Assembly: GCA_021786295.1 (NCBI GenBank)
Contig: JAJYNO010000025.1
Location: 3,206 to 67,205 of the forward strand
Reading direction: 5' to 3'
From: a bacterium
GTDB taxonomy: Bacteria > Elusimicrobiota > Elusimicrobia > Elusimicrobiales > UBA9959
Length of the DNA stretch: 64,000 bases
The position numbers and the translations under genes were made by a program. Numbering within the stretch: position 1 is the stretch's first letter; each line of letters opens with the position of its first letter. Under the pieces are notes generated by a model that saw nothing but the letters and a program-made list of their open reading frames with translations, did not search any database and had not been told where the DNA came from. Below are positions 9,629-54,022 of this stretch, piece after piece.

Positions 9629-9666
9629 AGACGAGAGCGGTACATAAAAAGTAGCCTGTCCCCTTT
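9599..9666. repeat. Perfect 22-bp direct repeat TAAAAAGTAGCCTGTCCCCTTT (two copies, period 46 bp)
   Basis: Copies at 9599-9620 and 9645-9666. Confidence 0.9.
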
Positions 9667-10918
9667 ATTTTTTTAGGAGGAGGTAGAGGCGGCCGGGGTT
9701 CCAGAGCTTGAAGGCGAAGGTGCGGGCCTTCTTGCCGTTGCCGGCGAAGAAGTCCACCCGGCCCGGGCCCTTTATGGCGCCGCCGGTGTCCTGGCAGAAG
9801 ACGAAGCGGGCGTACGGCCTGCGGCCCAGCAGGACCCCGTCCTTGTCCACGTCGGGAGCGTCGTCTATCCGCAGGAAGGCCAGCGCGCCCATCGGCACGA
9901 TGGTGTTGTCCACCGCCACCGAGCGCCAGCCGGTGAGAGGCAGGCCGTAGGTGCCCTGCGGCCCCTCGTCGGGATCGGCCGGCTGCTCGAGTCTGAAGAA
10001 GACGTAGCGTCTGTCCATGCCGAGCAGGCGGCGCGCCTGGTCCGGGTGGTCCTCCAGGTATTTTTCGCCCTTCTCCGGGCTGATGCCGGCGCGCGGAAGC
10101 GCCCCCGCCTCCACCATGGCCGAAAGCCAGCCCTTGAACTTGAGGCTGTTCGTGGCCGCGAACTTGGCCTTCATCACGCGCCCGTCCGGCAGCAGCAGGC
10201 GGGCCGAGCCCTCGGTGTGCAGGTCCATCAGGTCGGCGCGGGACTTCAGCCAGGCCAGTTCCAGGCCCTTGCCGGCCAGAGCGCCCTTGAAGTCTATGTC
10301 GTCGCGGTTCAGGTAGGGGACCAGGTTCCCGTCCTGCACGCGGCCGGTTATCTTCTGGCCCTTCAGCTTAGGGTCGAAGTCCTCCAGGTTCACCGTTATC
10401 AGGTCCGGGGGCTTGGCGTAGATGGGGTACTTGTAAGGGCCGGTCTTGGTGAGGCTGGCGTCTATCGTGGGCTCGTAGTAGGAGCTGAAGACCACCGTGC
10501 CGGTGGAGTCGTTGCCCGCCAGCTCGTAGACGTCGAAGCCGGCCTTTATCTCGCGGTCCAGGTCCGCCGCCGTGGGGGAGGACTGGAGTATCTTTATGAA
10601 TTCCTCGTCGGCGGCAGCCAGGTCCCCGGCGGTCACCTCGCGGCCGGCGAACGCGTACGGCAGGCCGGCGCCCTTAAGGCCCTGGAAATAGGCGCGGTCG
10701 AGCAGAGCGGCCTTGAGGAGCCCGGCGCGGTCGCCTGGGTCGGCGAAGGACGGCAGGTCGGCCGCTGCCGGCACGAACATGGCCGGGGCGGCGGCAGCGG
10801 GAGCGGTGGAGACCGGGGCCGGGCAGGGGGGGCAGGGCGGACAGACCTGTGGCCTGGTCCTCAGCGAGGCGCAGCCCGTCAGCGCCAGTCCAGCCGTCAG
10901 TAAGATCGCGTTCTTCAT
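9665..10918 (-). CDS. mltA: Membrane-bound lytic murein transglycosylase A (lipoprotein)
   Basis: LTGC lipobox, SSYYEP, YPIYAKPPDL, RYVFF, SVAVD, QDTGGAIKGPGRVDFFAG (3D domain). Confidence 0.92.
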   Translation of the reverse strand: MKNAILLTAGLALTGCASLRTRPQVCPPCPPCPAPVSTAPAAAAPAMFVPAAADLPSFADPGDRAGLLKAALLDRAYFQGLKGAGLPYAFAGREVTAGDLAAADEEFIKILQSSPTAADLDREIKAGFDVYELAGNDSTGTVVFSSYYEPTIDASLTKTGPYKYPIYAKPPDLITVNLEDFDPKLKGQKITGRVQDGNLVPYLNRDDIDFKGALAGKGLELAWLKSRADLMDLHTEGSARLLLPDGRVMKAKFAATNSLKFKGWLSAMVEAGALPRAGISPEKGEKYLEDHPDQARRLLGMDRRYVFFRLEQPADPDEGPQGTYGLPLTGWRSVAVDNTIVPMGALAFLRIDDAPDVDKDGVLLGRRPYARFVFCQDTGGAIKGPGRVDFFAGNGKKARTFAFKLWNPGRLYLLLKK

Positions 10919-11023: not shown

Positions 11024-12943
11024 ATGAAAGACAATATTTTCAGGGGGTGCGCGGCGCTGCTGTTCGCGGTCTTCGCCGCGCTCCCGGCCGCCGCGCTGGC
11101 CGGCGAGGCGCAGATAATCGCGCTGGGCGGCAGCGTTCAGGCGCGGCTGACCAGCGAGGGGGACTGGGTGAAGGCCTCCAAAGGCCTGTCGGTCCCGGAG
11201 GGCGGCGCGATACGCACCGACGCAGGAGGGGCGGCAGTGGTGCTGATGCCGAACAAGAGCAAGATCTGGCTAAAGGAGAGCACCCGCCTGGAGATAGAGC
11301 AGCGCCAGACGTTCGCCACCAGGCTGGCGCTGCTGTTCGGCAGGATCAAGGCCCGGGTGCCGCACCTGATGCGCCAGGAGAGGTTCGAGGTGCGCACTCC
11401 GTCTGCCGTCTGCGCGGTGCGGGGCACCGAGTTCACGATGGGCACCAGCGAGGACGGCAAGATGGACCTGAAGGTCCTTTTCGGCGAGGTCAACCTGCGC
11501 TTCAACGTGCCTCCGGCCGTGGGTCCGGACAGGTTCGACGTGCCGCAGGGGGAGGAGCTCTCAAGCGCCCCGGAGGGCAAGCCGAACAGGCCGGTGCTGC
11601 TGACGGCCAAGGCCGAGAGCGAGGCCCTCGAGAACTGGGACCCGGGGCTCACTCCGGAGGAGAGGACGGCGGACCTGGTGCGCAAGGAGAACGACCGCGC
11701 CCAGATCCGCGAGTTCGCCGCGGCCACCCAGAACGCCGAGGCGCAGGTCAGGAGCTTCCTGAACGTGGTCAAGGAGTCAGACCTGGCGGCCGGCCGCACG
11801 CTGACCGACGTGCACGGCAATCTGGTGCGAGTGGACCAGCGTCTGCTGCGCCCGGCTCCGGACCAGATACAGTTCTTCAACCTGGTCAAGCGCCAGGTCT
11901 ACAACAACGACGGCTCCTCGGCGCAGAACGGCGGCTTCGCGTACAACGGCGGGCAGGTGATGAACCGCCTGGACTACATGCAGATGACGATGGCCTTCAA
12001 CCAGGCCCTGCCGCAGCGCCTGGAGGACTGGCCAGGCTTCTTCGACAAGAACTCGGTCAAGCCGTCCTGGGCCTCCTTCGTGACGGCCAACCGCACCGAC
12101 GCCTCGCAGATCTTCTTCGCAGCCGAGGGCTACAAGTACGACCAGGCCAGGGACGAGCTGGTCAACAATCCCGGAATACTGACCAATGCCGACGGTTCCC
12201 CTCTGCCGGCCACCAGCCCGGACGACAGGGAGACGCTGATAACAGGCGTGCTGAACGACGATACCGGCGCCGGCGGGACCGGGATCAGCGCGGTACAGGG
12301 CCTGAGCATGATATCCAAACTGCAGGTGGCCGACTCCGGGGCCGGCAACGGGACGCTGGTCTACAAGGACGCCGCCTCCCATCCCGTGGACGGGACCGGG
12401 GCGGGGACCGCCTCGGACGTGGTCTGGGCCGTGCAGACGGCCAATCTGCCCGGCTATGAAAGCAAGGGCTCGGACACGGTAAGCGGCGACGGAGCCCCGC
12501 TCTGGCAGTACCAGGCGGACATGTACGATATCGGCAACCAGCAGTCTACGAACGCGGGAGAATACCTCTGGTTCGCCAAAGAGAACTACGGCATAAGCAA
12601 CAACGGCGCGATAAAGACGGTCGGGGACCTTACGGATTCCGGGCAGGACCCTTTCACCGTGCTGAAGAACAGCGCGCTGGAGAGCGTGATGTACATAAAG
12701 AAATCGTTCGGCAACGATCCGGCCGCCCTCGCCGCAGCGCTCAATCCCTCTCAGATCCCCGTGGCAGCTCTGACGCCCGCCCAGGAAGACGTCCTGAAAA
12801 ACGACATCTCCGGGGAAGATTACTTTTCCTACGGCTCCGGCGGCCCCGGCATGGGCACCAACATCGACGTGGTCTTTATCCCGGACCTGGCCGTGGCCGC
12901 TGTGCAGCGCATGCTGCCTGCTATAACGAGCCTTAAGAACTAA
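11024..12943 (+). CDS. Secreted FecR-domain protein with uncharacterised C-terminal region (paralog A)
   Basis: Signal peptide, FecR core (IRTDAGG...EVRTPSAVCAVRGTEF); shares further blocks with 52397..54022. Confidence 0.85.
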   Translation: MKDNIFRGCAALLFAVFAALPAAALAGEAQIIALGGSVQARLTSEGDWVKASKGLSVPEGGAIRTDAGGAAVVLMPNKSKIWLKESTRLEIEQRQTFATRLALLFGRIKARVPHLMRQERFEVRTPSAVCAVRGTEFTMGTSEDGKMDLKVLFGEVNLRFNVPPAVGPDRFDVPQGEELSSAPEGKPNRPVLLTAKAESEALENWDPGLTPEERTADLVRKENDRAQIREFAAATQNAEAQVRSFLNVVKESDLAAGRTLTDVHGNLVRVDQRLLRPAPDQIQFFNLVKRQVYNNDGSSAQNGGFAYNGGQVMNRLDYMQMTMAFNQALPQRLEDWPGFFDKNSVKPSWASFVTANRTDASQIFFAAEGYKYDQARDELVNNPGILTNADGSPLPATSPDDRETLITGVLNDDTGAGGTGISAVQGLSMISKLQVADSGAGNGTLVYKDAASHPVDGTGAGTASDVVWAVQTANLPGYESKGSDTVSGDGAPLWQYQADMYDIGNQQSTNAGEYLWFAKENYGISNNGAIKTVGDLTDSGQDPFTVLKNSALESVMYIKKSFGNDPAALAAALNPSQIPVAALTPAQEDVLKNDISGEDYFSYGSGGPGMGTNIDVVFIPDLAVAAVQRMLPAITSLKN

Positions 12944-12952
12944 GGGGAGACG

Positions 12953-13699
12953 ATGAAAAGAACAGCGTTCCTCATTCTGTCCGCTCTGTACGCGTCGCCC
13001 GCCTGGGCGGGAGTGGACTTCAATTCCGTCGGCATGAAGATGGCCGGCGAAGTGGTGGCCAACCCGGCCGGCTTCCTGTACGACTTCCAGCAGGATTTCG
13101 AGGGGACCACGCCGCTGCCGCCGGGCAAGAGCCTCAGTTTTCAGACCGGGCTTTGGGGAGGCATACTGCCGACGCTGGCGGCCATGCCCAGCCTTTCCGC
13201 CAAGTACCGCCTGCACCCGGAGGGCCGCCTGGCCCCCGGAGTGCCGCAGATAGACCTGATAGGCGGCTACTGGAGCTCGCCGCTGGCCAAGTCTGCCGGC
13301 AACAATTCCAGCGCCGTGAACGACCTGAAGTTCAACGGCTACTACATGGGAGCGCTGGTGACCTCTTCCGTGAGCCCGCGCGTCCGCACTTTCTGGGGCT
13401 ATAAGCACAGCCAGCTCAACGCCAGGCTCTCCTTCGCGGCGGGGCATGAACCGGACCTGCTGGGCACCAAGGTCAACAGTTTCAACACCGGTTTCAGGGA
13501 CGACTTCATCATAGCCGGCATAGAGACCCCGAAGGGCGTGGACAAGCTGTGGAGCATCCAGCTCGACTACGGCCTGGGCACGCAGACCTTCTGCAGCAAG
13601 GTCAGCTGGTACGGCAAGGTGTTCGAGCTGGGGCTGAACATCTACCCTGAGGGCGTGCTGGTGGTGCACCCCGTCTGGAACATGCACATCAATTTCTGA
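12953..13699 (+). CDS. Putative small outer-membrane beta-barrel protein
   Basis: Signal peptide, alternating hydrophobic/aromatic strands, C-terminal Phe (WNMHINF). Confidence 0.65.
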   Translation: MKRTAFLILSALYASPAWAGVDFNSVGMKMAGEVVANPAGFLYDFQQDFEGTTPLPPGKSLSFQTGLWGGILPTLAAMPSLSAKYRLHPEGRLAPGVPQIDLIGGYWSSPLAKSAGNNSSAVNDLKFNGYYMGALVTSSVSPRVRTFWGYKHSQLNARLSFAAGHEPDLLGTKVNSFNTGFRDDFIIAGIETPKGVDKLWSIQLDYGLGTQTFCSKVSWYGKVFELGLNIYPEGVLVVHPVWNMHINF

Positions 13700-13707
13700 G
13701 GACCGAA

Positions 13708-14958
13708 ATGAAAAAGACAATTCTCGGCGTTCTTATGACCGGAGCCCTGGCCGGCGGGGCCGCGGCGGCGGTGCCGGAGGACTCCAAGGTCTTCACTCCG
13801 TACTTCAACATGACGATGATGGAGGCCGGCTACGTGCCCAGCCAGGGGAACATCTTCAGCGGCGGCAACATCGACACGCAGGTCGGCATGCTTACGAAAC
13901 TCTCGCCGAAGGACCAGCTGTTCGGCCTTTACGACTTCAACTACGACGGTCAGGGCTTCGCGCCCCAGGATACGAAGCAGTTCACCGACCGCTCGATGAC
14001 GCACTCGTTCAACTTCGAGTACAGGCGCGCCCTGAGCGGGAAGTTCCGCCTGCGCCCCGGGGTCTCGTTCTCGCACGACTATTCCCGCACCGGCGCCAAC
14101 GAGACCTGGAAGACCGGCCTCTACAACATGAACTCCTTCGGCCTGCAGCTGGCCGGGGACTATCTGTTCGACTTCGAGAAGAACGGCATCGTCACGCTGA
14201 CCGTGCTGACCAAGAACGTCAAGTTCCCGAACTACACGGACCTGCTCAGCGAGTTCAACAGCGTCAACGGCCAGCAGGCCGGCGTCAACGGCGGCCTGGA
14301 GGACCAGCGCCTGACGCAGGTGAGCCTGCGCCCGATGTGGAACAAGTTCTTCGGCGGAATAACCTACACGCAGCAGGACTACAAGAACCAGAAGGTGGTG
14401 GACCTTAACTCTGCCGGAGACACTGCCGGCTACGGAGACACCAAGCAGAAGGACAAGACTACCATGCTGGACGCCGGTTTCAGGCATAAGATCTGGATCT
14501 TCGAGCTGTCGCCGATGGTCTCCTATACCGTACACCGCTCCAACCAGAACTACATCCGGTTCAAGTCCCTCGGCGCCACCTCCACCGACCTCACCTCCGG
14601 CAGTTCCGACGTGACCTTCATAGCCAGGAACTACGACTACAACGAGACCACGCTCAGCGTGCCGGTGGACCTGGACATAACCGGCAAGTGGGCCATAGGC
14701 GGAGCCGTAAGCGTGACCAGCCGCCACTATACGTCGCGGCCCAGGCGCGACGCCCTGAACGACTATATCATGGGCACCAAGCAGGACAACCTGATGACCA
14801 CGCTGACCGGCTCCATCCGCAAGCGCATCAACGAGATAGCCACGGTAAGGCTTTTCTACTCGCTGGTGGTGGCCAGCTCCAACTGCAAGTTCGAACAGTA
14901 TATGCCGTACAACTATACCGGCAACAGTTTCGGATTGGCCTACCAGCTGTCGTACTGA
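13708..14958 (+). CDS. Uncharacterised outer-membrane beta-barrel protein (paralog A)
   Basis: Signal peptide, amphipathic beta-strands rich in Y/F/N/T, C-terminal aromatic (FGLAYQLSY); homologous to 51028..52395. Confidence 0.78.
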   Translation: MKKTILGVLMTGALAGGAAAAVPEDSKVFTPYFNMTMMEAGYVPSQGNIFSGGNIDTQVGMLTKLSPKDQLFGLYDFNYDGQGFAPQDTKQFTDRSMTHSFNFEYRRALSGKFRLRPGVSFSHDYSRTGANETWKTGLYNMNSFGLQLAGDYLFDFEKNGIVTLTVLTKNVKFPNYTDLLSEFNSVNGQQAGVNGGLEDQRLTQVSLRPMWNKFFGGITYTQQDYKNQKVVDLNSAGDTAGYGDTKQKDKTTMLDAGFRHKIWIFELSPMVSYTVHRSNQNYIRFKSLGATSTDLTSGSSDVTFIARNYDYNETTLSVPVDLDITGKWAIGGAVSVTSRHYTSRPRRDALNDYIMGTKQDNLMTTLTGSIRKRINEIATVRLFYSLVVASSNCKFEQYMPYNYTGNSFGLAYQLSY

Positions 14959-14974
14959 GCGGCCGGCGCTTCCG

Positions 14975-15008
14975 CAAGGCCCGGCGGCGGGTCCTGGCCT
15001 TCTTTTTT
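14975..15008 (+). terminator. Intrinsic terminator after the FecR-barrel-barrel unit
   Basis: aaggcc...ggcctt stem followed by cttttttg. Confidence 0.65.
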
Positions 15009-15059
15009 GCGTAGTGAGAGCGCCCGATATTTGTTAATATAAGCGGTGTTCTGAACCAC

Positions 15060-16508
15060 ATGAGGACTTGCAAGGCCATAAAGACGTCCGTTCTGTGCGC
15101 GGCGGCCCTGCTGGCGGCTTCGGCCGCCGGCGCGGCCGGTCCCGGCACTTCCGCCGCCGACTTCCTGAAGATCCCGGTGGGGGCCAGGGAGACGGCTATG
15201 GGCGGAGCCTTCACTTCCGTTCCGGACGGTCCCGGCTCCGTGCTCTACAACTCCGCCGGCCTCGGCCTGGCCGCCGTGCCCGGGTTCACTTACTCCTATA
15301 ACGACTATCTGCCCGGCATCTCCCAGCACTGGCTGGCCGGCTCGCTGCCAGCCGTCGGCGGGGCCGTCGGCTTCGGCCTGGATTACCTGGACGTAAGCCC
15401 CTTCGCCTCTTACGATAATCTCGACAACAGGACCGGTTCGGTCTCCGCCTACGACATGGCCGTCTACCTGGGCTACGGGCGCGGCTTCAGGACCGGCCTG
15501 GCCTTCCTGCCTTCTCTCTACCTGGGCGCCTCTTTGAAATCGCTGAAGGAGAAGCTGGCTTCGGTCTCTGCCGCCGGCTACGCCGCCGACGCCGGCCTGC
15601 TGCTGCCTACCTCGGTGAAGGGGCTCGGCTTCGGGCTCGCGGCCAGGAACCTGGCCGCCAGCCGCCTCAGCTTCATCGGCTCCGGGGCCAGGCCGGCGGC
15701 CGAGTGGAAGGCCGGGGCCTCGTATTCGCTCGCTCCGTCCGCCTGGCCCGTGTCTTTCCTGGCCTCCGGCGACCTGAACCTGCCGAAGGACGGCTCCTCA
15801 TATTTCTCGGGAGGAATAGAAGGGACCTTCTACAGGCTGGTCTCGCTGCGGGCCGGCTACAGCTCCTACGGCGACATTTCCGACGGGCTGAGCTTCGGCC
15901 TGGGCCTGCTGCTGCCGTCGCGCTCGGGGCGGCGCCTGCGGCTGGACTATTCTTACGCCTCCACGTACGACCTCGGGAACATGCAGCGTTTCGGGATCTC
16001 CTGCGCGTTCGGAGGCCGGGCCGGCCGGGAGACGCCGGCTCCGTCCGCCGCGCCTCCCGCGACGGAGCCGGCGCCAGCAGGCGGAACCGCGCCGCCGGCG
16101 GCGGCCGCCAAGAGGAGCTTCGATTCCGCGCTGAACGACCTTTACGGCCAGGATCCGGTTAAATCGCTGGCTGCGGCAGAGTACCTCGCCGGCCTTAACG
16201 ACCCGCGGGCCATGGAGCATTTTTCGGCTCTGCTCTCCTCGGGCAGGACTGACTGGCAGATGGCGGCCCTGCGCGGTCTTGAACTCAGCAAGGACCCTCG
16301 CGCGGTTGGCGACCTCTGCCGGGCGCTGGGCGACCAGAAAGAAGAGGTGCGCGCGCACGCCGCCCTGGCCCTGGCCAGCCACCCGGGCCCGGCGGCCTCC
16401 GCCTGCCTGCAGGCCGAGCTGAAGGGCGAGAGTTCGGATATAGTGAAAAGCGCCATCATAAAGGTACTGGGCGGGATGAGCGCGGCGGGGGGGGCGGATG
16501 CACATTAG
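15060..16508 (+). CDS. PorV/PorQ-family barrel fused to a Pro/Ala linker and HEAT repeats
   Basis: ADFLKIPVGARETAMGGAF..YNSAGL PorV-type N-terminus; LRAGY; LDYSY..DLGNMQRFGIS; then HEAT-like repeats (ALGDQKEEVRAHAALAL). Confidence 0.82.
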   Translation: MRTCKAIKTSVLCAAALLAASAAGAAGPGTSAADFLKIPVGARETAMGGAFTSVPDGPGSVLYNSAGLGLAAVPGFTYSYNDYLPGISQHWLAGSLPAVGGAVGFGLDYLDVSPFASYDNLDNRTGSVSAYDMAVYLGYGRGFRTGLAFLPSLYLGASLKSLKEKLASVSAAGYAADAGLLLPTSVKGLGFGLAARNLAASRLSFIGSGARPAAEWKAGASYSLAPSAWPVSFLASGDLNLPKDGSSYFSGGIEGTFYRLVSLRAGYSSYGDISDGLSFGLGLLLPSRSGRRLRLDYSYASTYDLGNMQRFGISCAFGGRAGRETPAPSAAPPATEPAPAGGTAPPAAAAKRSFDSALNDLYGQDPVKSLAAAEYLAGLNDPRAMEHFSALLSSGRTDWQMAALRGLELSKDPRAVGDLCRALGDQKEEVRAHAALALASHPGPAASACLQAELKGESSDIVKSAIIKVLGGMSAAGGADAH

Positions 16509-17046
16509 GGAACAGTTCGCGCTCCTGGCCCTGGCCCTGGCCCTGGTCCTGCCCCTGGCCCGGCCGGCCAATGCGGCCATGAGCGGCGGGCCTTACGACC
16601 TGCCTCTGCTGGCCACGGTCTCCGGCGGGGGGACGGCGGCCGGCGGGAGCTTCACGGCCGGCGCGCTGAACCTGGGCGGGCCGTCTTTTTCTTCGGTGGC
16701 GCCGAGCGGCGGGGGTTATACCGTTGCGACGGGCGCTGCCCCGGCCGTCGTCCTGCTGGACTCCGCCCAGGTCAATCTGGCTTCCGCCCACTGCTATCCG
16801 GTGCCTTTCATGCCCTCGAGGGGGGATACCGTCATAACCTTTACCGGGCTGACCTCCTCGGCCGAGGTCAGGATATACACCATAAGCGGCCGGCTGGTGC
16901 GGGAACTGTACAAGAGCGACTTCGGGAGCAAGCTGGCGTGGGACGCCCGCAACTCCGCCGGCCAGCAGGTGGCCAGCGGGGTATATATTTACGTCATAAA
17001 GGGAGGCGGTCAGACCGCCACCGGAAAGCTGATGATAATCTGGTAG
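16498..17046 (+). CDS. Small secreted protein with T9SS-like/FlgD-Ig C-terminal sorting domain
   Basis: Signal peptide, Gly-rich N-domain, then HCYPVPF...VRIYTISGRLVREL...WDARNSAGQQVASGVYIY...TGKLMIIW. Confidence 0.82.
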   Translation: MHIREQFALLALALALVLPLARPANAAMSGGPYDLPLLATVSGGGTAAGGSFTAGALNLGGPSFSSVAPSGGGYTVATGAAPAVVLLDSAQVNLASAHCYPVPFMPSRGDTVITFTGLTSSAEVRIYTISGRLVRELYKSDFGSKLAWDARNSAGQQVASGVYIYVIKGGGQTATGKLMIIW

Positions 17047-17063
17047 AAGATCCGGAGAGAAAA

Positions 17064-39776: not shown

Positions 39777-40271
39777 ATGTACCGTTCCGAAAAATTCAAT
39801 CCCACGCTGTTCGGCAAACTGTTCCACCTGGGCTCAAGGCTGGACGAGAAGAACCGCTGGCTGAAGCTGGCCGAGGCCCTGCCGTGGGAGAAGCTGGACG
39901 CCGAGTACGGCAGGTACTTCGCGGCCGGCTACGGAAGGCCGGCCAAGGACTCGCGCCTGGTCTGCGGCCTGCTGGCGGTAAAGCAGCTCAAGAACGTTTC
40001 CGACGAGGACGCGGTGACCGAGTTCATGGAGAGCCCGTACGTTCAGGCCTTCTGCGGCCAGGAGTATTTCGCCGTGGAGGATATGGTCAACCCGGGATTG
40101 CTTTCGGAGCGCCGCAAGCGGCTGGGCCCGGAATTCATGGCCATGCTGGACGCGGAACTGGTCTCCGCGCTGAAGACCCACAGGGACCTGAAGTTCCACC
40201 CGGCGCACCGCCCTGGACCGGAGCCGTTCCTTCCCGCCCTTCTCTCCCGCCTGCGCTCTCTTTTCTCCTGA
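39777..40271 (+). CDS. IS5-family transposase N-terminal domain (DUF772-like) only, without DDE domain
   Basis: NRWLKLA..PW..Y..GRPA..SDE..ESPYVQAFCG..L...RKRLG pattern typical of IS5 transposase N-termini; stops after 164 aa. Confidence 0.75.
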   Translation: MYRSEKFNPTLFGKLFHLGSRLDEKNRWLKLAEALPWEKLDAEYGRYFAAGYGRPAKDSRLVCGLLAVKQLKNVSDEDAVTEFMESPYVQAFCGQEYFAVEDMVNPGLLSERRKRLGPEFMAMLDAELVSALKTHRDLKFHPAHRPGPEPFLPALLSRLRSLFS

Positions 40272-45087: not shown

Positions 45088-45234
45088 CTGGGGAAGCCCC
45101 GGATCTCATGCAAAGGGGTTAGGGCTTTCGGGTTAGCCCGATAGTGTCGGTTTAAGGTTTCGGGACCGCCATCGATCGGAAGAAAAATGACCTGCGGAGC
45201 GCCAGCCGCGCGGCTGACGCCCTACGGAGGGAAT

Positions 45235-48200
45235 ATGCGTTCATTCAGTATTTTGCTCGCCGCCGTCTTCGCGGCTGTCCTGTCGGGGACGGCTTTCGCG
45301 TCGCCTCAGCCGCTCATCGTCACCGTAAACGATAACCAGGGCAACCTCTTGGAGGACGTGACCGTGGCAGCGGTCAACTTCGGGGTGAACGGCCCCTCCA
45401 CTCACAGCGTGTTCGGATTGACGGACTCTTCTGGCGTCGCGGGCCTGCCGCTGGAGCAGGGCGTGGATTACGAACTGTTCGTCAGCACACAGGGCTATTC
45501 CCCGACGCTCGCCGATCAGTTCAACAACCCGGACCCCTCGGCGCATATCCACCTCCTCTATTCCGGCACCCAGCTCACCCGGACGGTAACTCTGGCCCCG
45601 GGGCTGTCGGGGGTGGGCCGCATAGTGCTCCCCTTCAAGAACGCCACCCCCAGCGAGGTGCTTTTCGGCAGCGTCAACAACAGCGCCCTTCAGCAGCCGG
45701 TGGCCTTCGGCATAACGCAGGCCCTGCCCGACAACACCGGTACGCTGATAGTGGACAACGTCCCCTACGCCTCGGCCGGCACGTATAATATCGGCGCGTA
45801 CGACCCCCAGCTCAACAGGGGCATAGGCCAGAACGTCGACCAGGACCTGAACGGCTCCACCCCGGTCACGATGGGGGCGCCGACCTTGGCCTATTCCCAG
45901 GCGGACTTCAACTATTCCGTGCCTCCGACCCGCGCTGACAATACCGCCGCGCAGAACGGCGGCGCCAGCGGCCTCTCAGTGCAGGGCGTGGTGCAGGACA
46001 CCGCCGCGGCGGTGGTCCCTAACATGGGCATCGGTTTCCAGTACTGCTACAACGGCAATTACAACAACATCTGGACGAATACCGACCAGAACGGGAGCTT
46101 CCAGCTTTACGGCCTCCTCCCAGGCGTCACCTACTACGCGCAGGTCTACGGCGGCTGCACCTGGACCCCGACCGGTCCCGGCGCCTGCTACGCTCCTTAC
46201 AGCAGCCCCGCTCTCTCCGGCGGCAGCCTGGACTGCACCACCCCTCCCTCCGTCAAAGGCCAGAACGATTTCGTGTATTACAGCTCGGCCAGCGTACAGT
46301 ACCAGATACTCAGCCTGTCCCAGATGCCGCCCAGCAGCGGCCAGATAAAGGTGTACGTTAAGGATTCCTCCGGCCACCCGATCCCGCAGGGCAACGTGGG
46401 GCTCAGTCCGGACGGCTCCCTCTGGAGCAATAACGGCTGCTCTGGCGCGCAGAGCTCCACCACGACTTTCTCCTCTCCCGGCTTCTCCAACGCCAACATC
46501 CAGCTGGCCCCGGACGGTTCCGCGGTCTTCAGCGGTCTGCCCAGCGGGAACTACGTCGTAAACGCGTGGACCCCGTTCTCGCAGAACGGCGCCAACGGTC
46601 CGGTCCCTTTCAACGCCGGACCTGACCAGCAGTTCGTCTGGGGCAGCTCAGAAGCGCACTGCGGCACCGACGATCTGCGCGTGGCCGTCGACACCGACCC
46701 CGCCACCAACGCCGGGAGCTACCTGCACGTGTACAATTCCTCCGGCACGGACCTGGGGATGTCCGCTATCGATGTCGCGGTCAACACCGGCGGCAACGCC
46801 ACGGGCAGTCTGACGGGCACGCTGCGGTTCAGCCAGGCCGCCGACCTGACCAAGGACCCGATGATGATAACGCTTAGCCCGATCTGCGGCCCCTCCGGCT
46901 GCCAGGGCCAGGGCAATTTCACGGTAGTCGGCAGCAGCGGCTCGCCCAGCTACACCTACGACATCCCGGTGACCAGCGGCACGGCTTACAACCTGAACGT
47001 CAACTCCAGGTGGTGGGCCTGGGCCCGCACCAACGGCGGCAATAACACCGTGGACCTTTCCACCGGGACCGGCAGCGCCGTCATGGACATGAACTTCGTG
47101 CCCGGCGGCGTGATAACCGGCACCGTCTACAAACCGGACGGCACGGTCTACACTCCCGGCAACAATATCTACGTCTGGATCAACGCCGATGCCGACCAGG
47201 GCTGGGCCGGGGCCCAGCTGTCCAAGGACGGCACGTTCGAGATCGACGGCGCGATGCCGGGCGTGAACCAGCTGTCGCTGAATATAAACGGCAACAGCCT
47301 GGAACAGTATACCCTGCCGTTCCCTGACCCGGTAGTGACCGTGGTGGCGGGCAGCACCGCCACGCTGAACCTGAACCTGAGAAGGGCCACCTACCTCGGC
47401 GCGACGGTCGACATGACCAAGCTTCCGGTCAGCTACTTCGAGGCTTCCGGCTCCGGGGACGCCGTCTACGGCTTCAGCGTGCTGCCGCTGCCGTCCGGCT
47501 CCCTGTTCACTCACGACGAGCTGATAAGCGTCCTGAACCACAAGGGCGGGGACAACAACAGCCTCTCCTATTCTCCTCCCGTAGCCCCCAACGCGCAGGG
47601 GCCTTGCGGCAACGGCTGGACGCCCAACGGCTTCTGCGCCGTCGACCTCCCCTCCCCGGCGGTCTATGACCTGTACCTGGTGCGCAACGGGGACTTCTCC
47701 GACATGAGCGTTTCAAATCCGCCTTACCCGTATTTCACGGTGTTCGGCTCCACGCGGAACGTGGTGCTCAACGATTCCAGGGCTACGGCCCCCGTCCCTC
47801 CCAAGTACATGGGCGGGCAGACGGTCAACGGGGTGAGCGTGGATATGACGCCCTCCTCCGACCTGAGCTCCCGCGGCAACGCGACGCTGGCGGGCTCCGT
47901 GACGGCGACCAACTTCTTCCGCCAGGCGGACTACGCCGCCACCGGCGGCGACTTCAACAAGTTCCTGAACTACCTGCCGGTGGTGAGCCTGTACAACTCC
48001 TCCGGCACCCTGAAGGCGGCGGGCCTGGTAGTCCCTTCTCCCTCCTATATACAGCAGCATAACGCCGAGTTCAGCGCGGACTTCGCGCTGGGCTACCAGA
48101 AATTCAGCACGCTGCTGAACAGCGCCGGGGGCTTCGGCTTCGGGATACAGGACCTGCCCCCGGGCGCCTGCTATACGGCCGTGGTCACTACCCCGAACTA

Positions 48201-50079
48201 TCCGCCGTACCAGACCCGCAGGTGCCTTGGCGCGCCCGGCTCCACTACCACCCTCAATATAGACCTGGACACCGCTGTCGGCTACGGGGCCAGCCTTTCC
48301 GGCGTAGTTTCCGATACCGGCACCGTTCCAATGCCTAACGTGCTGGTGACGGTCTCCGTCCCCGGCATGCAGGACAAGGCGGCGGTCACTGGCTCCTCGG
48401 GGACCTACGAGTTCGACGGCCTCCCGGCCGGCACGGTGAAGGTGAAGGCCTCCTTCGGCGGCTACGCCTCCGCCGAGGCCGACGTGGGAGTGAACGGCAG
48501 CGGGACCGCCTTCACGCAGGACCTGACGCTGACCTACGCCCCCGGCTCGATAACCGGCACCGTGTACTCCCAGAAGCTGCCTTTCGCCAAGGTGCAGCCC
48601 GGCGCCCAGATCTACGCCTACGACGACACCTACAACGGCACGCATACGGACAGCCCCCTGCCGCTGATAAAGACCAAGACAGGCCCGGACGGCTCCTACA
48701 CGCTGACCGGCCTCGTCCCCGGGGATACCTATAAGGTCTTCCTGAGCGTGCCCGGCAAGTACGTGCTGGACCAGTCAGTGACCGCCGCCACCTCCGCGGT
48801 CTCCGGCGCTGACTTCACGATGCTGCCCAAGCCGCTGGACATAGAGCTGTTCGCCAAGCAGGGGGAGAGCTACTACGACTTCACCGTGCTCAACCCGCAG
48901 GACTTCAAGTCCGGGGCGGCCTACTGGTGCGAGGCTCCGTACTCCTCCTGCTCCAGCCCGGCGCCGCTGCAGCTGAACCAGCTCTCGAGCGGGGAATTGT
49001 TCGGGCAGATCCCGCTGAGCCTGCTGACCCCCGGGCATACCTACGTGCTGCACGGCGAGGCGACCTCGCTCACCAACCAGACGGTGGTGAAGGAGATAAC
49101 CTTCGGTCTCGGGGTCAGCGCCAACGCCAGCCAGAACATAGACGACGCTATACTGGGCGACGACTCCGACAACGCCGCGGGCCGCGGCAACAACGAGGCC
49201 CCGGTGGACCCCACCGGGACGGACCCGTCCGCGCTGCAGTTCCCGGCCGGCGCGCTGCTGCCGGTCTCCACCGGCGCCATCCCGTCCTGCGCGTTCTCCA
49301 GCACCGACAAGAACGATCCGGCCGTTTCCACCGAGGTCGCTTCCGTAGGCGCGGACGCGATAAAGGGGAACCTGTACAACATCTCGCTGTCCAGCGTGGT
49401 CGTGAACCAGAACAAGGGTTTCGACGTGACGCTGGCCTACGACAAGAGCGCGGTGACGGACCCCTCCGGCCTGGCAGTGGCGCAGTACAACTCGGCCACC
49501 GACAGCTGGGAGAAGGTCCCCGGCCTGGCGGCTATAGACCCGCTGAGCGGCACCATAAAAGTGCGCCTTAAGAGCCTGACCTCGGTGCTGGCGGCAGGCA
49601 GGCGGACGGCCGCGCCGCTCTCCGTCTTCAACGGGCACGAGTACGTGGTCAGCGCGCCGGCCGGCGCTTCCGTCACTACCTCAGGCACCTTCACCGTGCT
49701 GGAATCCACTGCGGTAGGAGCCGGGGGGAGCGTCTCCACGGTCAAGGTCTACAACTTCCCGAACCCGTTCAACCTGGAAAGCAAGACCCTCGCCACCAGG
49801 TACGCCGGCAGCATGACCACCAACGGGACGATAATAAGCGTGGAGGTGCCGGCAGGCAACGGCGGCCCGGGTCACATCCGCATCTATACGCTTTCGGGGG
49901 AGCTGGTGCGCGACATCAGCATCAGCTTCACCGCTGGCGCCTATAACTACGTGACCTGGGACGGCCGGAATAAGGACGGTTCCGAAGTCGCCAACGGGGT
50001 CTATTACGGCTTCGTCAGCTTCTCCGGCAATAAGCCCGGCAGAAAGCACGCCACGTTCAAGATGGCGGTGATCAAGTGA
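45235..50079 (+). CDS. Large (1614 aa) secreted multi-beta-sandwich surface protein with T9SS-like/FlgD-Ig C-terminal domain
   Basis: GGAGG SD, signal peptide, carboxypeptidase-regulatory-like repeats (LSGVVSD..VTGSSGTYEFDGLPAGT), several Cys pairs, C-terminal YNFPNPF..IRIYTLSGELVR..WDGRNKDGSEVANGVY..KMAVIK. Confidence 0.85.
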   Translation: MRSFSILLAAVFAAVLSGTAFASPQPLIVTVNDNQGNLLEDVTVAAVNFGVNGPSTHSVFGLTDSSGVAGLPLEQGVDYELFVSTQGYSPTLADQFNNPDPSAHIHLLYSGTQLTRTVTLAPGLSGVGRIVLPFKNATPSEVLFGSVNNSALQQPVAFGITQALPDNTGTLIVDNVPYASAGTYNIGAYDPQLNRGIGQNVDQDLNGSTPVTMGAPTLAYSQADFNYSVPPTRADNTAAQNGGASGLSVQGVVQDTAAAVVPNMGIGFQYCYNGNYNNIWTNTDQNGSFQLYGLLPGVTYYAQVYGGCTWTPTGPGACYAPYSSPALSGGSLDCTTPPSVKGQNDFVYYSSASVQYQILSLSQMPPSSGQIKVYVKDSSGHPIPQGNVGLSPDGSLWSNNGCSGAQSSTTTFSSPGFSNANIQLAPDGSAVFSGLPSGNYVVNAWTPFSQNGANGPVPFNAGPDQQFVWGSSEAHCGTDDLRVAVDTDPATNAGSYLHVYNSSGTDLGMSAIDVAVNTGGNATGSLTGTLRFSQAADLTKDPMMITLSPICGPSGCQGQGNFTVVGSSGSPSYTYDIPVTSGTAYNLNVNSRWWAWARTNGGNNTVDLSTGTGSAVMDMNFVPGGVITGTVYKPDGTVYTPGNNIYVWINADADQGWAGAQLSKDGTFEIDGAMPGVNQLSLNINGNSLEQYTLPFPDPVVTVVAGSTATLNLNLRRATYLGATVDMTKLPVSYFEASGSGDAVYGFSVLPLPSGSLFTHDELISVLNHKGGDNNSLSYSPPVAPNAQGPCGNGWTPNGFCAVDLPSPAVYDLYLVRNGDFSDMSVSNPPYPYFTVFGSTRNVVLNDSRATAPVPPKYMGGQTVNGVSVDMTPSSDLSSRGNATLAGSVTATNFFRQADYAATGGDFNKFLNYLPVVSLYNSSGTLKAAGLVVPSPSYIQQHNAEFSADFALGYQKFSTLLNSAGGFGFGIQDLPPGACYTAVVTTPNYPPYQTRRCLGAPGSTTTLNIDLDTAVGYGASLSGVVSDTGTVPMPNVLVTVSVPGMQDKAAVTGSSGTYEFDGLPAGTVKVKASFGGYASAEADVGVNGSGTAFTQDLTLTYAPGSITGTVYSQKLPFAKVQPGAQIYAYDDTYNGTHTDSPLPLIKTKTGPDGSYTLTGLVPGDTYKVFLSVPGKYVLDQSVTAATSAVSGADFTMLPKPLDIELFAKQGESYYDFTVLNPQDFKSGAAYWCEAPYSSCSSPAPLQLNQLSSGELFGQIPLSLLTPGHTYVLHGEATSLTNQTVVKEITFGLGVSANASQNIDDAILGDDSDNAAGRGNNEAPVDPTGTDPSALQFPAGALLPVSTGAIPSCAFSSTDKNDPAVSTEVASVGADAIKGNLYNISLSSVVVNQNKGFDVTLAYDKSAVTDPSGLAVAQYNSATDSWEKVPGLAAIDPLSGTIKVRLKSLTSVLAAGRRTAAPLSVFNGHEYVVSAPAGASVTTSGTFTVLESTAVGAGGSVSTVKVYNFPNPFNLESKTLATRYAGSMTTNGTIISVEVPAGNGGPGHIRIYTLSGELVRDISISFTAGAYNYVTWDGRNKDGSEVANGVYYGFVSFSGNKPGRKHATFKMAVIK

Positions 50080-50105
50080 GGGCCGGCGTGACCAGAGGAG
50101 AGACC

Positions 50106-51011
50106 ATGAAACGTAATATTGTCCTTTCAGCGGTTTTGATGCTGGGCGCGGCCGCCGCCCGGGCGGCCGGCGTGGGCACTACCGGCGCCCAGTTCCTCGA
50201 GGTCGGGGTGGGGGCCAGGGAGCTGGCCCTCGGCTCGGCGGCGAGCGTCCTGACCAGCGGGGCCAACGCTATGAACTGGAACCCGGCCAGGCTGGCCGGC
50301 CTGGCCTCCAGGTCGCTGAGCGCCAGCTACAACTCGCTCTTCCTGGACGAGTCCCAGGGCTTCCTGGGCTACGCCGCCCCGCTCGGGGACGGCATGGGGG
50401 TGCTGGCCGGCGGCGTGAACTACCTTACCGTTTCCAACATAGATAAACGCGCCGGCGACACGGAGAACCCGGATTCGACGTTCTCCGACAACAATACCGC
50501 GCTCACGCTTTCCTACGCCAGGGACGAGGTGCGGCCCGGGCTGTCGCTGGGCGCGAGCCTGAAGTACGTGCAGCAGGGGCTCGACGGCCAGAACGACAGG
50601 GCCATGGCCCTGGACGCCGGCTCCGCCCTGAAGCTGGGCGGGGTCTGGACGGCGGCGCTGGCGGTGCAGAACCTGGGCGGCAAGATAGGCCCCGACGACC
50701 TGCCGCTCACCGTGCGGGGCGGCGCGGCGGCCAGCCTGCTGTCGGGCAAGCTGAGCGCGGCGGCCGACGTGGACTGGCTGGCCAACGACAAGCTGGCCTA
50801 TCTTTCCGTGGGCGCGGAATACTCGCTGGCCAGGTACCTCGCGGTGCGCGCCGGATACCAGTTCGGGCGCAGCCAGGACAAGCTCGGCGGGCTGACGGGG
50901 CTGGCGGCCGGCATGGGGCTCAAGTTCGGCGAGTTCTCGCTGGACTACGCCTATGTGCCGTTCGGCGACCTGGGGGATACCCACCGCATGACGATGGGCT
51001 TGAACTTCTGA
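50106..51011 (+). CDS. PorV/PorQ-family outer-membrane barrel
   Basis: GTTGAQFLEVGVGARELALG, WNPARLA, NLG, VRAGY, LDYAYVPFGDLGDTHRMTMGLNF. Confidence 0.87.
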   Translation: MKRNIVLSAVLMLGAAAARAAGVGTTGAQFLEVGVGARELALGSAASVLTSGANAMNWNPARLAGLASRSLSASYNSLFLDESQGFLGYAAPLGDGMGVLAGGVNYLTVSNIDKRAGDTENPDSTFSDNNTALTLSYARDEVRPGLSLGASLKYVQQGLDGQNDRAMALDAGSALKLGGVWTAALAVQNLGGKIGPDDLPLTVRGGAAASLLSGKLSAAADVDWLANDKLAYLSVGAEYSLARYLAVRAGYQFGRSQDKLGGLTGLAAGMGLKFGEFSLDYAYVPFGDLGDTHRMTMGLNF

Positions 51012-51027
51012 CGACGGAGCTGACAAA

Positions 51028-52395
51028 TTGAAAAAGGCCATCATCTTCTCGCTTCTCCTGTCGCCGGTCTGCGCCGGCGCCCAGCTCGTTCCCGAAGTAT
51101 CCACCGGCACGGCGGCCCCTCTTCCAGCCTCCGGCGCCGCGGCCGAACTGGAGTCCAAGGCCTCCGCGGCCAAGTCGGCCGTGGACCCCTTCAACGATAA
51201 CACCCACCGCCCCGCGGCCCCGGCAGGGAAGTACCAGCTGATGGGCACGCTGGACCTGTACGGCGGCCAGTACTTCTTCGGCGGTCAGTCCGGGGCTTTG
51301 AACGGCTACGGCGTGCTGAACGCCGAGCTGGCCAAGAGCTACTCGTCCAGCTACGGCTATTACCTGAGCCTAAATTCTGTCTACACAGGTTTCAAGCAGG
51401 TCAACGAGCTGGCCGGAGGCGGCACGCTGTTCCAGCAGAGCCTGGACAACAGCCTCGGCCTCAAGTGGATAAAACGCTACGACGGCGGGTACGCCCTGAA
51501 GCCTCACATAGGCGTGACCAGCGAGCTCTTCCGGGAGACCAAGGACGAGAAATGGGGGCAGGGGCTCTACGACTTCACCCGCTACGACGCCGGCCTTACG
51601 CTGGAACGCAAGACCCGCGCCGGCTTCGAGGTGCCCTGGACTTACCAGCTTTCCTGGGACGCCTATTACACCCGTTACACGCGTTTCAAGTCCCTGGCCA
51701 GCGAGTACGGGGCCGAACTGGCCGCCCCTGACCCGGGCAGCCGCGTGCTGGACGCCGTTACCAACCAGTTCTCCTATTACAACGAATGGGACCTGCCGGG
51801 CTTCGCGAAGGCCGAGGCGCTCGCTTCGGTCGCCGTCACGGGCTACCCGGAGCAGAAGGTCATCAACTCAGCCGGGTCCTACCTTCCCTCCACGCGCTCC
51901 GACTATTACGAACTGCTCACCCTGTCCGTCAGCAAACGCTATCCCGACGCGGAGGTCCTGGGCGGGATAAGACCGGTAGCGGGTTTAGGACTGACCTTCG
52001 ACGACCAGGTCTCCAACCAGAACCACCTGGACACCGACCCGGCGCACCTGAAGTTCATAAAGTCGTTCTACGATTACTACGAGACGACCCTCTCTCCCAC
52101 GCTTATGCTCACGTCGGTCTCCTCCGGCTTCGTGCTGTCGGCCAATTACAGCTTTACGGCCCGCTGGTATCCTGACCGCCTGACCCAGACCGACTCCGGC
52201 TCCTATACCGGGGATAAGCTGAGGCAGTATACCGGCGACTTCGGCCTGGAAGCCTCCTATCCGATAACGGCTTCCCTGGACGCGAGGCTGCGGACCGACT
52301 GGTCCCTCTCCCGCTCCAATAACCGTTACGAACAGGTCTACCGCTACAACTACGACAGCTCCACGTATTTCGCGGGCGTAGAATGGAGGTTCTGA
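51028..52395 (+). CDS. Uncharacterised outer-membrane beta-barrel protein (paralog B)
   Basis: Signal peptide, Tyr-rich amphipathic strands, C-terminal FAGVEWRF; homologous to 13708..14958. Confidence 0.78.
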   Translation: MKKAIIFSLLLSPVCAGAQLVPEVSTGTAAPLPASGAAAELESKASAAKSAVDPFNDNTHRPAAPAGKYQLMGTLDLYGGQYFFGGQSGALNGYGVLNAELAKSYSSSYGYYLSLNSVYTGFKQVNELAGGGTLFQQSLDNSLGLKWIKRYDGGYALKPHIGVTSELFRETKDEKWGQGLYDFTRYDAGLTLERKTRAGFEVPWTYQLSWDAYYTRYTRFKSLASEYGAELAAPDPGSRVLDAVTNQFSYYNEWDLPGFAKAEALASVAVTGYPEQKVINSAGSYLPSTRSDYYELLTLSVSKRYPDAEVLGGIRPVAGLGLTFDDQVSNQNHLDTDPAHLKFIKSFYDYYETTLSPTLMLTSVSSGFVLSANYSFTARWYPDRLTQTDSGSYTGDKLRQYTGDFGLEASYPITASLDARLRTDWSLSRSNNRYEQVYRYNYDSSTYFAGVEWRF

Positions 52396-52396
52396 G

Positions 52397-54022
52397 ATGA
52401 GAAAGCCGGGCTTTGTCCTTCTTATGCTGCTTTCCGTCCCCTGCGCGGCCATGACGCGCGGCATAGTTCTGGTCCCGAAGGGCACCGTGGAGGCCCGCGC
52501 TTCCGGCTCCGCCTCCTGGGTGCCGGTCTCCAGGGACGTGCGGCTGAAAGAGGGCGACGAGGTCCGCACCTCTGGCGGCGCGACCGCGGACGTCTATTTT
52601 TCCGACGGTTCCCGCTTCAGGATAGGCCGCGACAGCCATTTCGCCGTGGGCAGCACCGGCAGGAAGAGGACCGCCCTCAGCCTGCTTTACGGGAGGCTGA
52701 GGGCCGCGGTGGCGGGGTATTTTTCCAGCCGGGTGGAGGTGCGCACCCCTTCGGCCGTCTGTGCGGTGCGCGGCACCGAGTTCGACGTGCAGGTGGCCAG
52801 GAACGGCGATACCTCGATGAACGTGGACGAGGGCCTGGTTGAGGTCAGCGACGGCAAGGGCAAGACCGCTGTCGTTTCCTCCGAGGAGGCCATAAAGGTG
52901 ACGCAGGCCGGCATGTCCATGCCGCAGCTGGTGTCGCTCAGGGACGACAGGGCCGAGGCCGCCGCGCGGCCGATGGCCGTCATCCACGACACCGCCCGCC
53001 AGCGCACCCGCACGATGCTGGAGGAGCTGCGCAACCGCCAGCTCAAGGCCAACGAGGCGGAGCTGGGCAAGGACGCCATAGACGCGTTCGGCCACCGCGT
53101 GCGCCTGGAGGAGTACCTGCTGCGCCCCTCCGACAAGGAGTTCAAGCTGCTGTTCCTCAGCAAGCGCGAGGAGGCCAGCAGGCTGGACTGGGGCCAGATA
53201 GACGAACAGTTCCACGCCGCCATCCCGGACGACATCAGCAAGGTCGGGGACATTATCAGCGGCATGTACTTCTCCAAGACGGCCCCGACGAACTGGATGA
53301 AGTACTTCGAGGTGTACCTGACCAACACGGTGGACAGCGTGAAGGAGACCATAGACTTCACCCAGCCAGTAGCTATAAATTTCTCCGGCTATACCGGAGT
53401 GGCCAACGACTTCCGCTATTACCCGGGCTCGATCGACTGGAAGCAGATCCTGTCCGGGCCGGGCGTGGCGCTGGCCCAGGGCGCAGGCACTAACGCCCCG
53501 GGGCTCAACGCCGACGAGCGCATGCAGTTCGAGCAGAAGCAGGACTGGAACCAGACCTACGCCAACAATATCACGTTCACGCAGAGCGTGGTGGACGCCT
53601 CCGGAGCGATGGCCGAAATGTACCAGGTCGCTCTGAATCCGGCTCTCTCCGCCAGTGTGCAGGCCGCCGAGGCCGGGGCGTATACGTATTGGAACAGCAA
53701 TATTGACCCCACCCAGCTCACGCCGGCGTACAACAGCTATCCCAGCGGGCCGGACAAGGCGGACCTGTACGGGGAGAGCGTTTACGCCGACGGATCGACC
53801 TTGTCGGTGCGCAAGATGCTGGTGTCCAACGAAGGGGATATCTTGAGCATACCCGGGAACGCCGCCCCCGCCACCTTCCTCAAGGAGGGCAGCTACAACC
53901 TGGAGGAGGTCGTCGGCTCCAGCCTGTTCCAGGGCCGGGATATAGACGTGCTGCTGGCCCCGGAGATACTGAACCAGAAGAATAACGCCACCACCACCGC
54001 GGACAGCTTCAAGCTGAACTGA
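52397..54022 (+). CDS. Secreted FecR-domain protein with uncharacterised C-terminal region (paralog B)
   Basis: Signal peptide, GDEVRT, EVRTPSAVCAVRGTEF, VDEGLVEV; shares blocks with 11024..12943. Confidence 0.85.
   Translation: MRKPGFVLLMLLSVPCAAMTRGIVLVPKGTVEARASGSASWVPVSRDVRLKEGDEVRTSGGATADVYFSDGSRFRIGRDSHFAVGSTGRKRTALSLLYGRLRAAVAGYFSSRVEVRTPSAVCAVRGTEFDVQVARNGDTSMNVDEGLVEVSDGKGKTAVVSSEEAIKVTQAGMSMPQLVSLRDDRAEAAARPMAVIHDTARQRTRTMLEELRNRQLKANEAELGKDAIDAFGHRVRLEEYLLRPSDKEFKLLFLSKREEASRLDWGQIDEQFHAAIPDDISKVGDIISGMYFSKTAPTNWMKYFEVYLTNTVDSVKETIDFTQPVAINFSGYTGVANDFRYYPGSIDWKQILSGPGVALAQGAGTNAPGLNADERMQFEQKQDWNQTYANNITFTQSVVDASGAMAEMYQVALNPALSASVQAAEAGAYTYWNSNIDPTQLTPAYNSYPSGPDKADLYGESVYADGSTLSVRKMLVSNEGDILSIPGNAAPATFLKEGSYNLEEVVGSSLFQGRDIDVLLAPEILNQKNNATTTADSFKLN

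Follow-up and report, generated by a model that had tools for sequence, protein, structure and literature searches.

What two secreted proteins with a FecR domain do is the question raised by a 64,000-nucleotide stretch of an Elusimicrobiota contig (JAJYNO010000025.1 of assembly GCA_021786295.1, positions 3,206 to 67,205), called the window below. The original prediction, made from the letters of the window, took both for subunits of a surface filament or adhesin and not for signalling anti-sigma factors. We denote the family of the first protein (X_A) and its paralog (X_B) as X, and the unnamed family of barrels adjoining them as F0. The results favor, with fair confidence, a model-based reading in which X and F0 form a two-protein anchor of the outer membrane, where a helix of X would lie in the barrel pore with FecR in the periplasm and a beta-sheet domain on the surface. 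The features on which the argument draws are as follows (aa, amino acids).

11024..12943, + strand: X_A (639 aa), with signal peptide, FecR, helix and unnamed beta-sheet domain (open reading frame, Pfam and structure model)
11024..11101, + strand: X_A Sec-type signal peptide, aa 1-26, without lipobox (inferred from sequence)
11102..11503, + strand: X_A FecR region, aa 27-160, its N-terminal half with the retention-plug fold of 5IX9; predicted periplasmic (Pfam and fold search)
11651..11782, + strand: X_A long helix, aa 210-253; homology with X_B predicts that it spans the barrel pore
11783..12169, + strand: X_A conserved N-terminal part of the unnamed beta-sheet domain, aa 254-382
12170..12571, + strand: X_A variable center, aa 383-516 (ortholog identity)
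12572..12940, + strand: X_A C-terminal blocks, aa 517-560 conserved, 561-610 variable, 611-639 conserved
13708..14958, + strand: F0_A, outer-membrane beta-barrel cognate to X_A (416 aa)
51028..52395, + strand: F0_B, outer-membrane beta-barrel cognate to X_B (455 aa; residue alternation suggests about 16 strands)
52397..54022, + strand: X_B (541 aa), paralog of X_A with the same layout (open reading frame, Pfam and structure model)
52970..53053, + strand: X_B helix, aa 192-219, lying against inward-facing F0_B residues in the complex model

X_A and X_B share an unnamed domain downstream of FecR

FecR (PF04773) was located at aa 63-156 of X_A and aa 54-149 of X_B (E 1e-15), directly after the signal peptide as had been claimed, and the sequence blocks quoted in the original prediction lie at their assigned places in both open reading frames. 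Given that PF04773 was the sole family above cut-off in either protein in Pfam and NCBIfam scans (other FecR-type NCBIfam matches fell far below cut-off) and that no membrane anchor precedes FecR, the proteins lack a cytoplasmic anti-sigma domain and are not anti-sigma factors, in agreement with the prediction. It was also correct that neither a sigma factor gene of the extracytoplasmic function (ECF) type nor a TonB receptor gene adjoins either gene within the window. The same scans revealed no RTX family and no C-terminal sorting domain (CTD) on the two proteins. A hydrophobic N-terminus resembling a signal peptide was present in 245 of 274 X proteins, and a lipobox in none of the 274, which rules out a lipoprotein anchor. 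An inner transmembrane helix was ruled out as well, the hydrophobic stretch flagged in 81 proteins being C-terminal in 78 of them. In X_A, the conserved aa 611-639 end in such a hydrophobic helix, which is present in the A subfamily.

The two proteins do share a domain behind FecR, as had been proposed. Comparison of X_A with X_B by hhalign gave 99.8% over the shared block, with FecR included in the aligned part, and a single post-FecR profile to which both belong recovered X_A (E 8.5e-94) as well as X_B (E 1.1e-76). The proposed C-terminal blocks are weak in pairwise comparison (E 0.07 and 3.2), yet they can be aligned across 50 family members together with the N-terminal blocks, and the post-FecR part thus constitutes a true family. 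No Pfam or NCBIfam family matched this domain, including in a Pfam scan of 39 members. Sequence searches of the PDB with X and with F0 gave no match (none at E 1 in one, four chance matches at E 0.8-1.5 in the other), and an Atlas search with the sheet domain gave no usable match. The identical 16-mer noted in both proteins is indeed there, but it does not mark a special link between them, because three FecR proteins of the genome without the sheet domain carry it almost unchanged or unchanged, making it a generic FecR motif. Genes for three short secreted FecR proteins, which have charged C-terminal tails and lack the sheet domain, are found at G000:C27:21653-22417, C27:160523-161305 and C35:about 14550-15454; one of these three sits immediately before a PorV-like gene.

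AlphaFold2 models of X_A and X_B (mean predicted local distance difference test score, pLDDT, 78 and 88, respectively) consist of FecR, a linker, a single long helix (38 residues in A, 28 in B) and long antiparallel strands. The FecR part matches the folds of PupR and BDI_1681 (6OVM and 4M0H) with Z of 14-17. Its N-terminal half in X_A also matches the periplasmic plug of MpIBP, an ice-binding adhesin (5IX9), with Z 9.8 and a root-mean-square deviation of 2.7 over 73 of 76 residues, and that of X_B does so with Z 5.9. The adhesin retention family retention_LapA (NF033682) scored 18.7 bits on X (E 0.0016), below its cut-off of 50. In searches with whole models, the sheet domain drew generic matches with Z up to 7.2 (partial barrels, lipovitellin) that stay within the chance range, and no filament fold appeared among the clear matches, which is a weak test. 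In PMC5550230, region I of MpIBP is described as a periplasmic plug beneath a pore-spanning segment of about 40 Å, and type 1 adhesins as held back in TolC.

X genes are usually accompanied by a cognate barrel gene

A gene for an outer-membrane barrel adjoins both X_A and X_B and had been missed by the original prediction. F0_A and F0_B are homologous (E 1e-8), and the family has a barrel of about 390-410 aa with strands that start right behind the signal peptide, alternating strand residues, a C-terminal aromatic residue, and short turns and long conserved loops on opposite sides. No Pfam or NCBIfam family covers F0, and the PorV and PorP models do not match it. Neither PF04575 nor a TPR family was found in any of 59 F0 barrels, and scans of the window proteins and F0 members returned no POTRA/ShlB or two-partner secretion (TPS) families; a search of the genome with PF04575 was uninformative, as it was silent on the controls too.

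Among genome and metagenome loci, which were not deduplicated, F0 lies at most 1.5 kb from 193 of 228 X genes. The remaining 35 comprise 27 that end less than 1.2 kb from the end of their record, 4 with F0 at 1.7-4.7 kb and 4 without F0. Stop and start codons of X and F0 often abut. The two families also diverge together, with a correlation of 0.89 between X and F0 distances over 161 distinct pairs, a value inflated by kinship, and all 8 nearest relatives are common to each X paralog of the window and its own barrel. Moreover, X and F0 are fused into a single chain in three proteins (63-66% identical to each other), with a hydrophilic linker of 55-60 residues and no second signal peptide between them. 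In six further loci (L132:7828-9939, also L068, L122, L133, L138 and L139), F0 carries an N-terminal extension of 300-370 aa whose start resembles, by inspection, that of F1, a family of giant secreted proteins described below, in an autotransporter-like order.

F0 was present in 91 of 251 sampled genomes of the phylum, and X, searched with a single query, showed a parallel distribution (82 of 251). Outside two families 88 of 99 genomes possess F0, as compared with 3 of 73 and 0 of 79 inside them. These two families have mostly small genomes where size is listed and, we infer, are host-associated lineages. The X-F0 pair likely marks a free-living lifestyle, since it is the 88 of 99 genomes outside the two small-genome families, against 3 of 152 within, that carry the barrel. 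The post-FecR profile was matched by 560 clusters at 50% identity; X homologs with a named taxon are Elusimicrobiota, and the best 80 of 171 genome loci include 78 named Elusimicrobiota or Endomicrobiia and 2 named only 'bacterium'.

A complex model places the helix of X_B in the pore of F0_B

We modeled F0_B together with mature X_B from separate, unpaired alignments of the two proteins (residue numbers of contacts refer to the modeled constructs). The complex scored 0.77 (0.77, 0.65 and 0.84 in the individual runs), while the highest of three controls reached 0.00. Of 157 solved complexes 116 attain the score mark, as do 2 of 215 mismatched pairs, although these figures apply only approximately to alignments of this kind. 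The runs had at least 39% of contacts in common, with a partner pLDDT of at least 78. The top contacts join helix residues 176-190 of X_B to alternate residues of several F0_B strands, and hydrophobicity is lower at the 31 strand positions in contact than at adjacent ones (0.28 versus 0.48). The start of the helix (170, 176) lies near the first short turn of F0_B and its end (190) near the long loops. The N- and C-terminal sheet blocks (196-264, 477-482 and 502-508) and part of FecR also belong to the interface, with the sheet contacting the long loops. A sequence search of the PDB found no similar complex.

Barrel termini and short turns generally face the periplasm. By this rule, FecR would be periplasmic and the sheet outside, because FecR sits at the short-turn end and the sheet at the long loops. 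The variable center is not among the confident barrel contacts, and its variable stretches are thus likely exposed at the surface, as the original prediction had held for the center. The topology of helix in the pore, FecR below and variable sheet above is quite probable on the basis of the model, in which binding and threading are predicted for pair B and extend to pair A by homology.

Covariation between the two families was then examined in 179 complete pairs, which gave 161 distinct aligned pairs with an effective number of sequences (Neff) of 134 at 80%. Mean-field direct coupling analysis (DCA) of 108 X columns against 386 F0 columns (41,688 inter-protein column pairs) ranked X190-F0 125 first (Z 9.3), and this is one of the 25 contacts listed for the model. 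Both residues lie in the interface for 8 of the top 20 pairs, as compared with 3 expected. For the Q/K state of X190-F0 125 in 9 independent pairs, change in the same direction amounted to 6.2 and in the opposite direction to 0.1 (median p 0.03, for a pair chosen post hoc). Contact 186-151 matches K or R with D or E in 131 of the 161 pairs; in the 10 A-type rows, which form a single clade, the two residues change together.

The center of X varies and its helix keeps its length

Orthologs showed the predicted excess of variability in the center, with a mean pairwise identity of 0.37 in A (114 orthologs, center length 105-152) and 0.42 in B (115 orthologs, center length 76-112), as compared with 0.66-0.77 for helix and N-terminal sheet and 0.58-0.81 for the flanking conserved blocks overall. 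By contrast, no indel occurred in the helix in any of these orthologs of A or B, and FecR identity within the A subfamily was 0.75. The claim that the middles of the two proteins are unrelated could not be maintained, as the center consists of strands with loop insertions and conservation in X_A extends well beyond the blocks first noted, to about residue 382. Their described richness in G, T, N, D and S applies to A (0.47) and fails for B (0.34, versus 0.32 in its own N-terminal sheet).

A proposed plug-and-thread anchor and its alternatives

Gene pairing, co-divergence, fusions, constant helix length, the variable center, and an operon with a giant protein of the type IX secretion (T9SS) kind and a PorV-like gene are the observations that support an anchor made of X and F0. 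In the proposed route, both proteins would be exported via Sec, and X would then pass C-terminus first through its cognate barrel until the helix and the folded FecR reach the pore, much as type 1 adhesins stop in TolC. The helix of about 30-40 residues would stay inside the pore, FecR would remain on the periplasmic side to act as a stopper or handle, and the sheet with its variable center would be displayed on the cell surface, where it might bind a surface or hold the co-encoded giant protein on the cell. That the exposed sheet serves as an adhesion surface or as a dock for this giant protein is plausible, with the balance tipping slightly to doubt.

Several points weigh against this anchor. 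The second run of the complex was weaker (0.65, with 114 confident contacts), the complex was modeled for pair B with pair A placed by homology, and inside and outside were derived from contact lists, manual strand assignment and the general barrel rule rather than from coordinates. Covariation had low power at this Neff, with noisy intra-barrel pairs; 12 of the top 20 inter-protein pairs do not lie wholly in the interface, mutual information ranks X190-F0 125 second behind a non-interface pair, and three further pairs fell short in the test on independent pairs (median p 1, 0.25 and 0.125). The fusions pose a geometric difficulty, because the C-terminal end of X, which would be outside, joins the first strand of the barrel at its periplasmic start, and the linker would therefore have to re-cross the pore or be cleaved. 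As to genomic context, the giant gene is absent from most A-type loci, where F4, a small secreted protein, is present instead, and the genome holds 17 CTD-type and 21 PorV-like matches, with pairs of giant protein and PorV widespread in the absence of X. Finally, FecR is not an obligatory plug, since 15 of 100 signal-peptide-bearing X representatives do without it. In most of these, signal peptide and sheet are separated by only about 30 residues that correspond to the helix, and in one (P0393) a Mbeg1/lipase-like region replaces FecR ahead of helix and sheet; the one FecR-less gene with visible context has F0 1.8 kb away. Given that FecR is lost or replaced in some members, the constant unit is helix plus sheet, with FecR an optional inner module.

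The same threaded complex could act as a sensor, in which an outer ligand or load moves the helix and FecR hands on the resulting signal or force to a partner at the inner membrane, as an inversion of cell-surface signaling. The FecR fold is the signaling module of PupR and FecR (the Z of 14-17 above), and its conservation within the A subfamily exceeds what a mere stopper needs. In 6 of 61 wide loci, a gene for an ECF sigma factor is situated shortly upstream of X. However, counted over X genes with at least 2.5 kb of upstream sequence, the figure is 5 of 123, with none in the window, and the upstream ECF genes (L067, L074, L085, L088, L102 and L108) generally have their own zinc-finger anti-sigma factor, in several cases with a CBM48-like domain. 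They keep a signaling role for X open yet look like local regulation, and loss or replacement of FecR in some members also speaks against relay through it, so that we regard the sensor as unlikely. The model could alternatively depict a transit state, with F0 a secretion pore akin to Slam and the type XI secretion system (T11SS) and X its cargo, released or passed on. A language-model look-alike cluster of F0 (Atlas score 0.96) has PF04575 SlipAM on 19% of its members, FecR-less members have no plug, and T11SS barrels export soluble cargo encoded alongside, according to bioRxiv 2024.09.26.615229. By contrast, a helix of fixed length and conserved, covarying pore contacts suit a lasting complex, PF04575 gave no match in the 59 barrels and the fusions hold both partners in one chain, which together make this explanation rather improbable.

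If threading were a modeling artefact, X might bind F0 and still be wholly periplasmic, as an accessory or plug similar to POTRA or TPR domains. This arrangement would be simplest for the fusions, with X on the side of the barrel N-terminus, and would fit both the neighboring genes for cell-wall enzymes (MltA and NamZ) in A-type loci and the weak, generic fold matches of the sheet (Z about 7). It is difficult to reconcile with the top covarying pair, which links the middle of the helix to a position on a strand close to the end with the long loops, with sheet residues that touch the long conserved loops, and with a loop-rich variable center suited to the outside; we consider it improbable to a still higher degree. 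Least probable of all is the filament of the original prediction, in which conserved ends polymerize and leave the center exposed. Conserved ends do flank a variable center, open sheet edges could pair between copies and some genomes have tandem paralogs. But X and its cognate barrel occur side by side in a one-to-one ratio, form a single chain in three proteins and give a strong heterodimer model, neither a lipobox nor a pilin-like leader was seen, and the fold searches, weak as a test, gave no clear filament match, leaving a filament subunit unsupported.

Thus, a plug-and-thread variant of surface retention, built from two unnamed families, is the best reading. It may even amount to a distinct class of export and anchoring, in which a dedicated 16-strand barrel threads a separate Sec-exported protein to leave a permanent rod across the outer membrane, a suggestion that we make only tentatively. 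In such a class the periplasmic module would be exchangeable, being FecR, absent, or an enzyme-like domain, and a diversifying sheet on the outside would hold the giant T9SS-type surface proteins of the phylum. It would be near-universal in free-living Elusimicrobiota, could couple periplasm to surface mechanically, and would unite type 1-like retention, a Slam-like barrel and autotransporter-like fusions in one family. Searches of the open literature listed no description of the X-F0 pair or its anchoring route. How proteins are attached to the surface in diderms beyond the model phyla is largely an open question, for which X and F0 offer a two-gene, directly testable device and a link between the FecR fold and an adhesin retention plug. 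Two families without Pfam or NCBIfam models thereby gain a predicted structure and role, and the pair hints at a way in which T9SS-like secretion beyond Bacteroidota could retain its giant cargo on the cell.

Comparison with known systems

Autotransporters (type Va) hold their outer domain by a helix in the barrel pore, and Slam barrels carry an N-terminal TPR region. The X-F0 fusions and the F1-like-F0 fusions share the autotransporter order, whereas X and F0 are normally two chains (a single chain in three relatives), with an F0 barrel of about 390 aa and an N-terminal domain of X predicted to stay inside; one weak Autotransporter match reached 22.7 bits against a cut-off of 26. Slam/T11SS (DUF560, PF04575) likewise combines a single outer-membrane barrel with a neighboring cognate secreted protein. 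However, 59 F0 proteins gave no PF04575 match, F0 lacks the N-terminal TPR region, and X ends in a large sheet, with no 8-stranded barrel of the TbpB type recognized, and is predicted to stay in the pore. As described in bioRxiv 2024.09.26.615229, T11SS cargo ends in an 8-stranded barrel; no Pfam family of this type was found in 39 X members and no credible fold match in the whole-model searches.

Likeness to type 1 retained adhesins (MpIBP, LapA) extends to the fold of the periplasmic N-terminal domain, a spanning segment of about 40 Å and an outer domain, as described in PMC5550230. X differs in having a Sec signal peptide and no RTX, in a spanning part predicted as alpha-helix, and in a pore formed by a single-chain neighboring barrel of about 16 strands instead of TolC with an ABC transporter. 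X therefore resembles type 1 adhesin retention but is not a member of that family. Two-partner secretion (type Vb) is set apart by its POTRA-bearing Omp85 barrel and the TPS domain of its cargo, since F0 is barrel-only and X gave no TPS match. Type V pilins are expected to have a lipoprotein precursor, in contrast to X with its missing lipobox. With FecR/PupR anti-sigma factors, X has the FecR fold (PF04773) in common, and it differs by lacking the cytoplasmic domain and inner-membrane anchor and by possessing the helix-sheet module and a dedicated barrel. Leptospira surface proteins LipL45, Lsa33 and Lsa19 carry FecR domains outside signaling according to PMC13719327, and by analogy are a precedent for such use of FecR.

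As regards T9SS accessory barrels, the X operon usually includes a giant CTD-type protein and a PorV-family gene, and the genome encodes a SprA-like protein of 1803 aa (G000:C31:35675-41083). X itself has no CTD, which is found instead on the products of its neighbors at 16498-17046 and 45187-50079, and F0 matches neither PorV nor PorP. PorP-like barrels have reportedly been seen, in one study (PMC9143113), as anchors of T9SS type B cargo.

Genes surrounding the X-F0 pairs

The neighborhood of the two pairs contains the following genes.

12953..13699, + strand: F4, unnamed secreted protein of 248 aa, likely a small outer-membrane barrel
15060..16508, + strand: PorV/PorQ-family barrel with HEAT repeats, following F0_A in some genomes only (Pfam/NCBIfam)
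16498..17046, + strand: small protein with T9SS type-A sorting domain (TIGR04183, 39.5 bits, cut-off 23)
45187..50079, + strand: F1, giant secreted multi-Ig protein (1630 aa) with FlgD-Ig/T9SS-like C-terminal domain
50076..51011, + strand: PorV/PorQ-family barrel (NF033709, 146.5 bits)

Of 49 non-A loci, 43 have a giant or F1-family gene within four genes of X and 27 have a PorV-like gene. CTD-type and PorV-like genes often form adjacent pairs in the genome, suggestive of an expanded T9SS-like system outside Bacteroidota. F4 was seen at 12 loci, always between an A-like X gene and its barrel, and it may be a partner of the conserved C-terminal hydrophobic helix of A-like X. Divergently upstream of X_A, the NamZ and MltA cell-wall enzyme genes (8414-10918, minus strand) are a feature of most A-type loci. 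Beyond F0_A, the gene at 16938-18515 encodes a repetitive fiber-like protein with a weak match, below cut-off, to the N-domain of a Bdellovibrio mosaic adhesive trimer (NF053851, E 1e-4); like the PorV-HEAT and small CTD genes, it follows F0_A in some genomes only. A short open reading frame at 39777-40271 presumably corresponds to the N-terminal part of an IS5-type transposase, which we take it to resemble.

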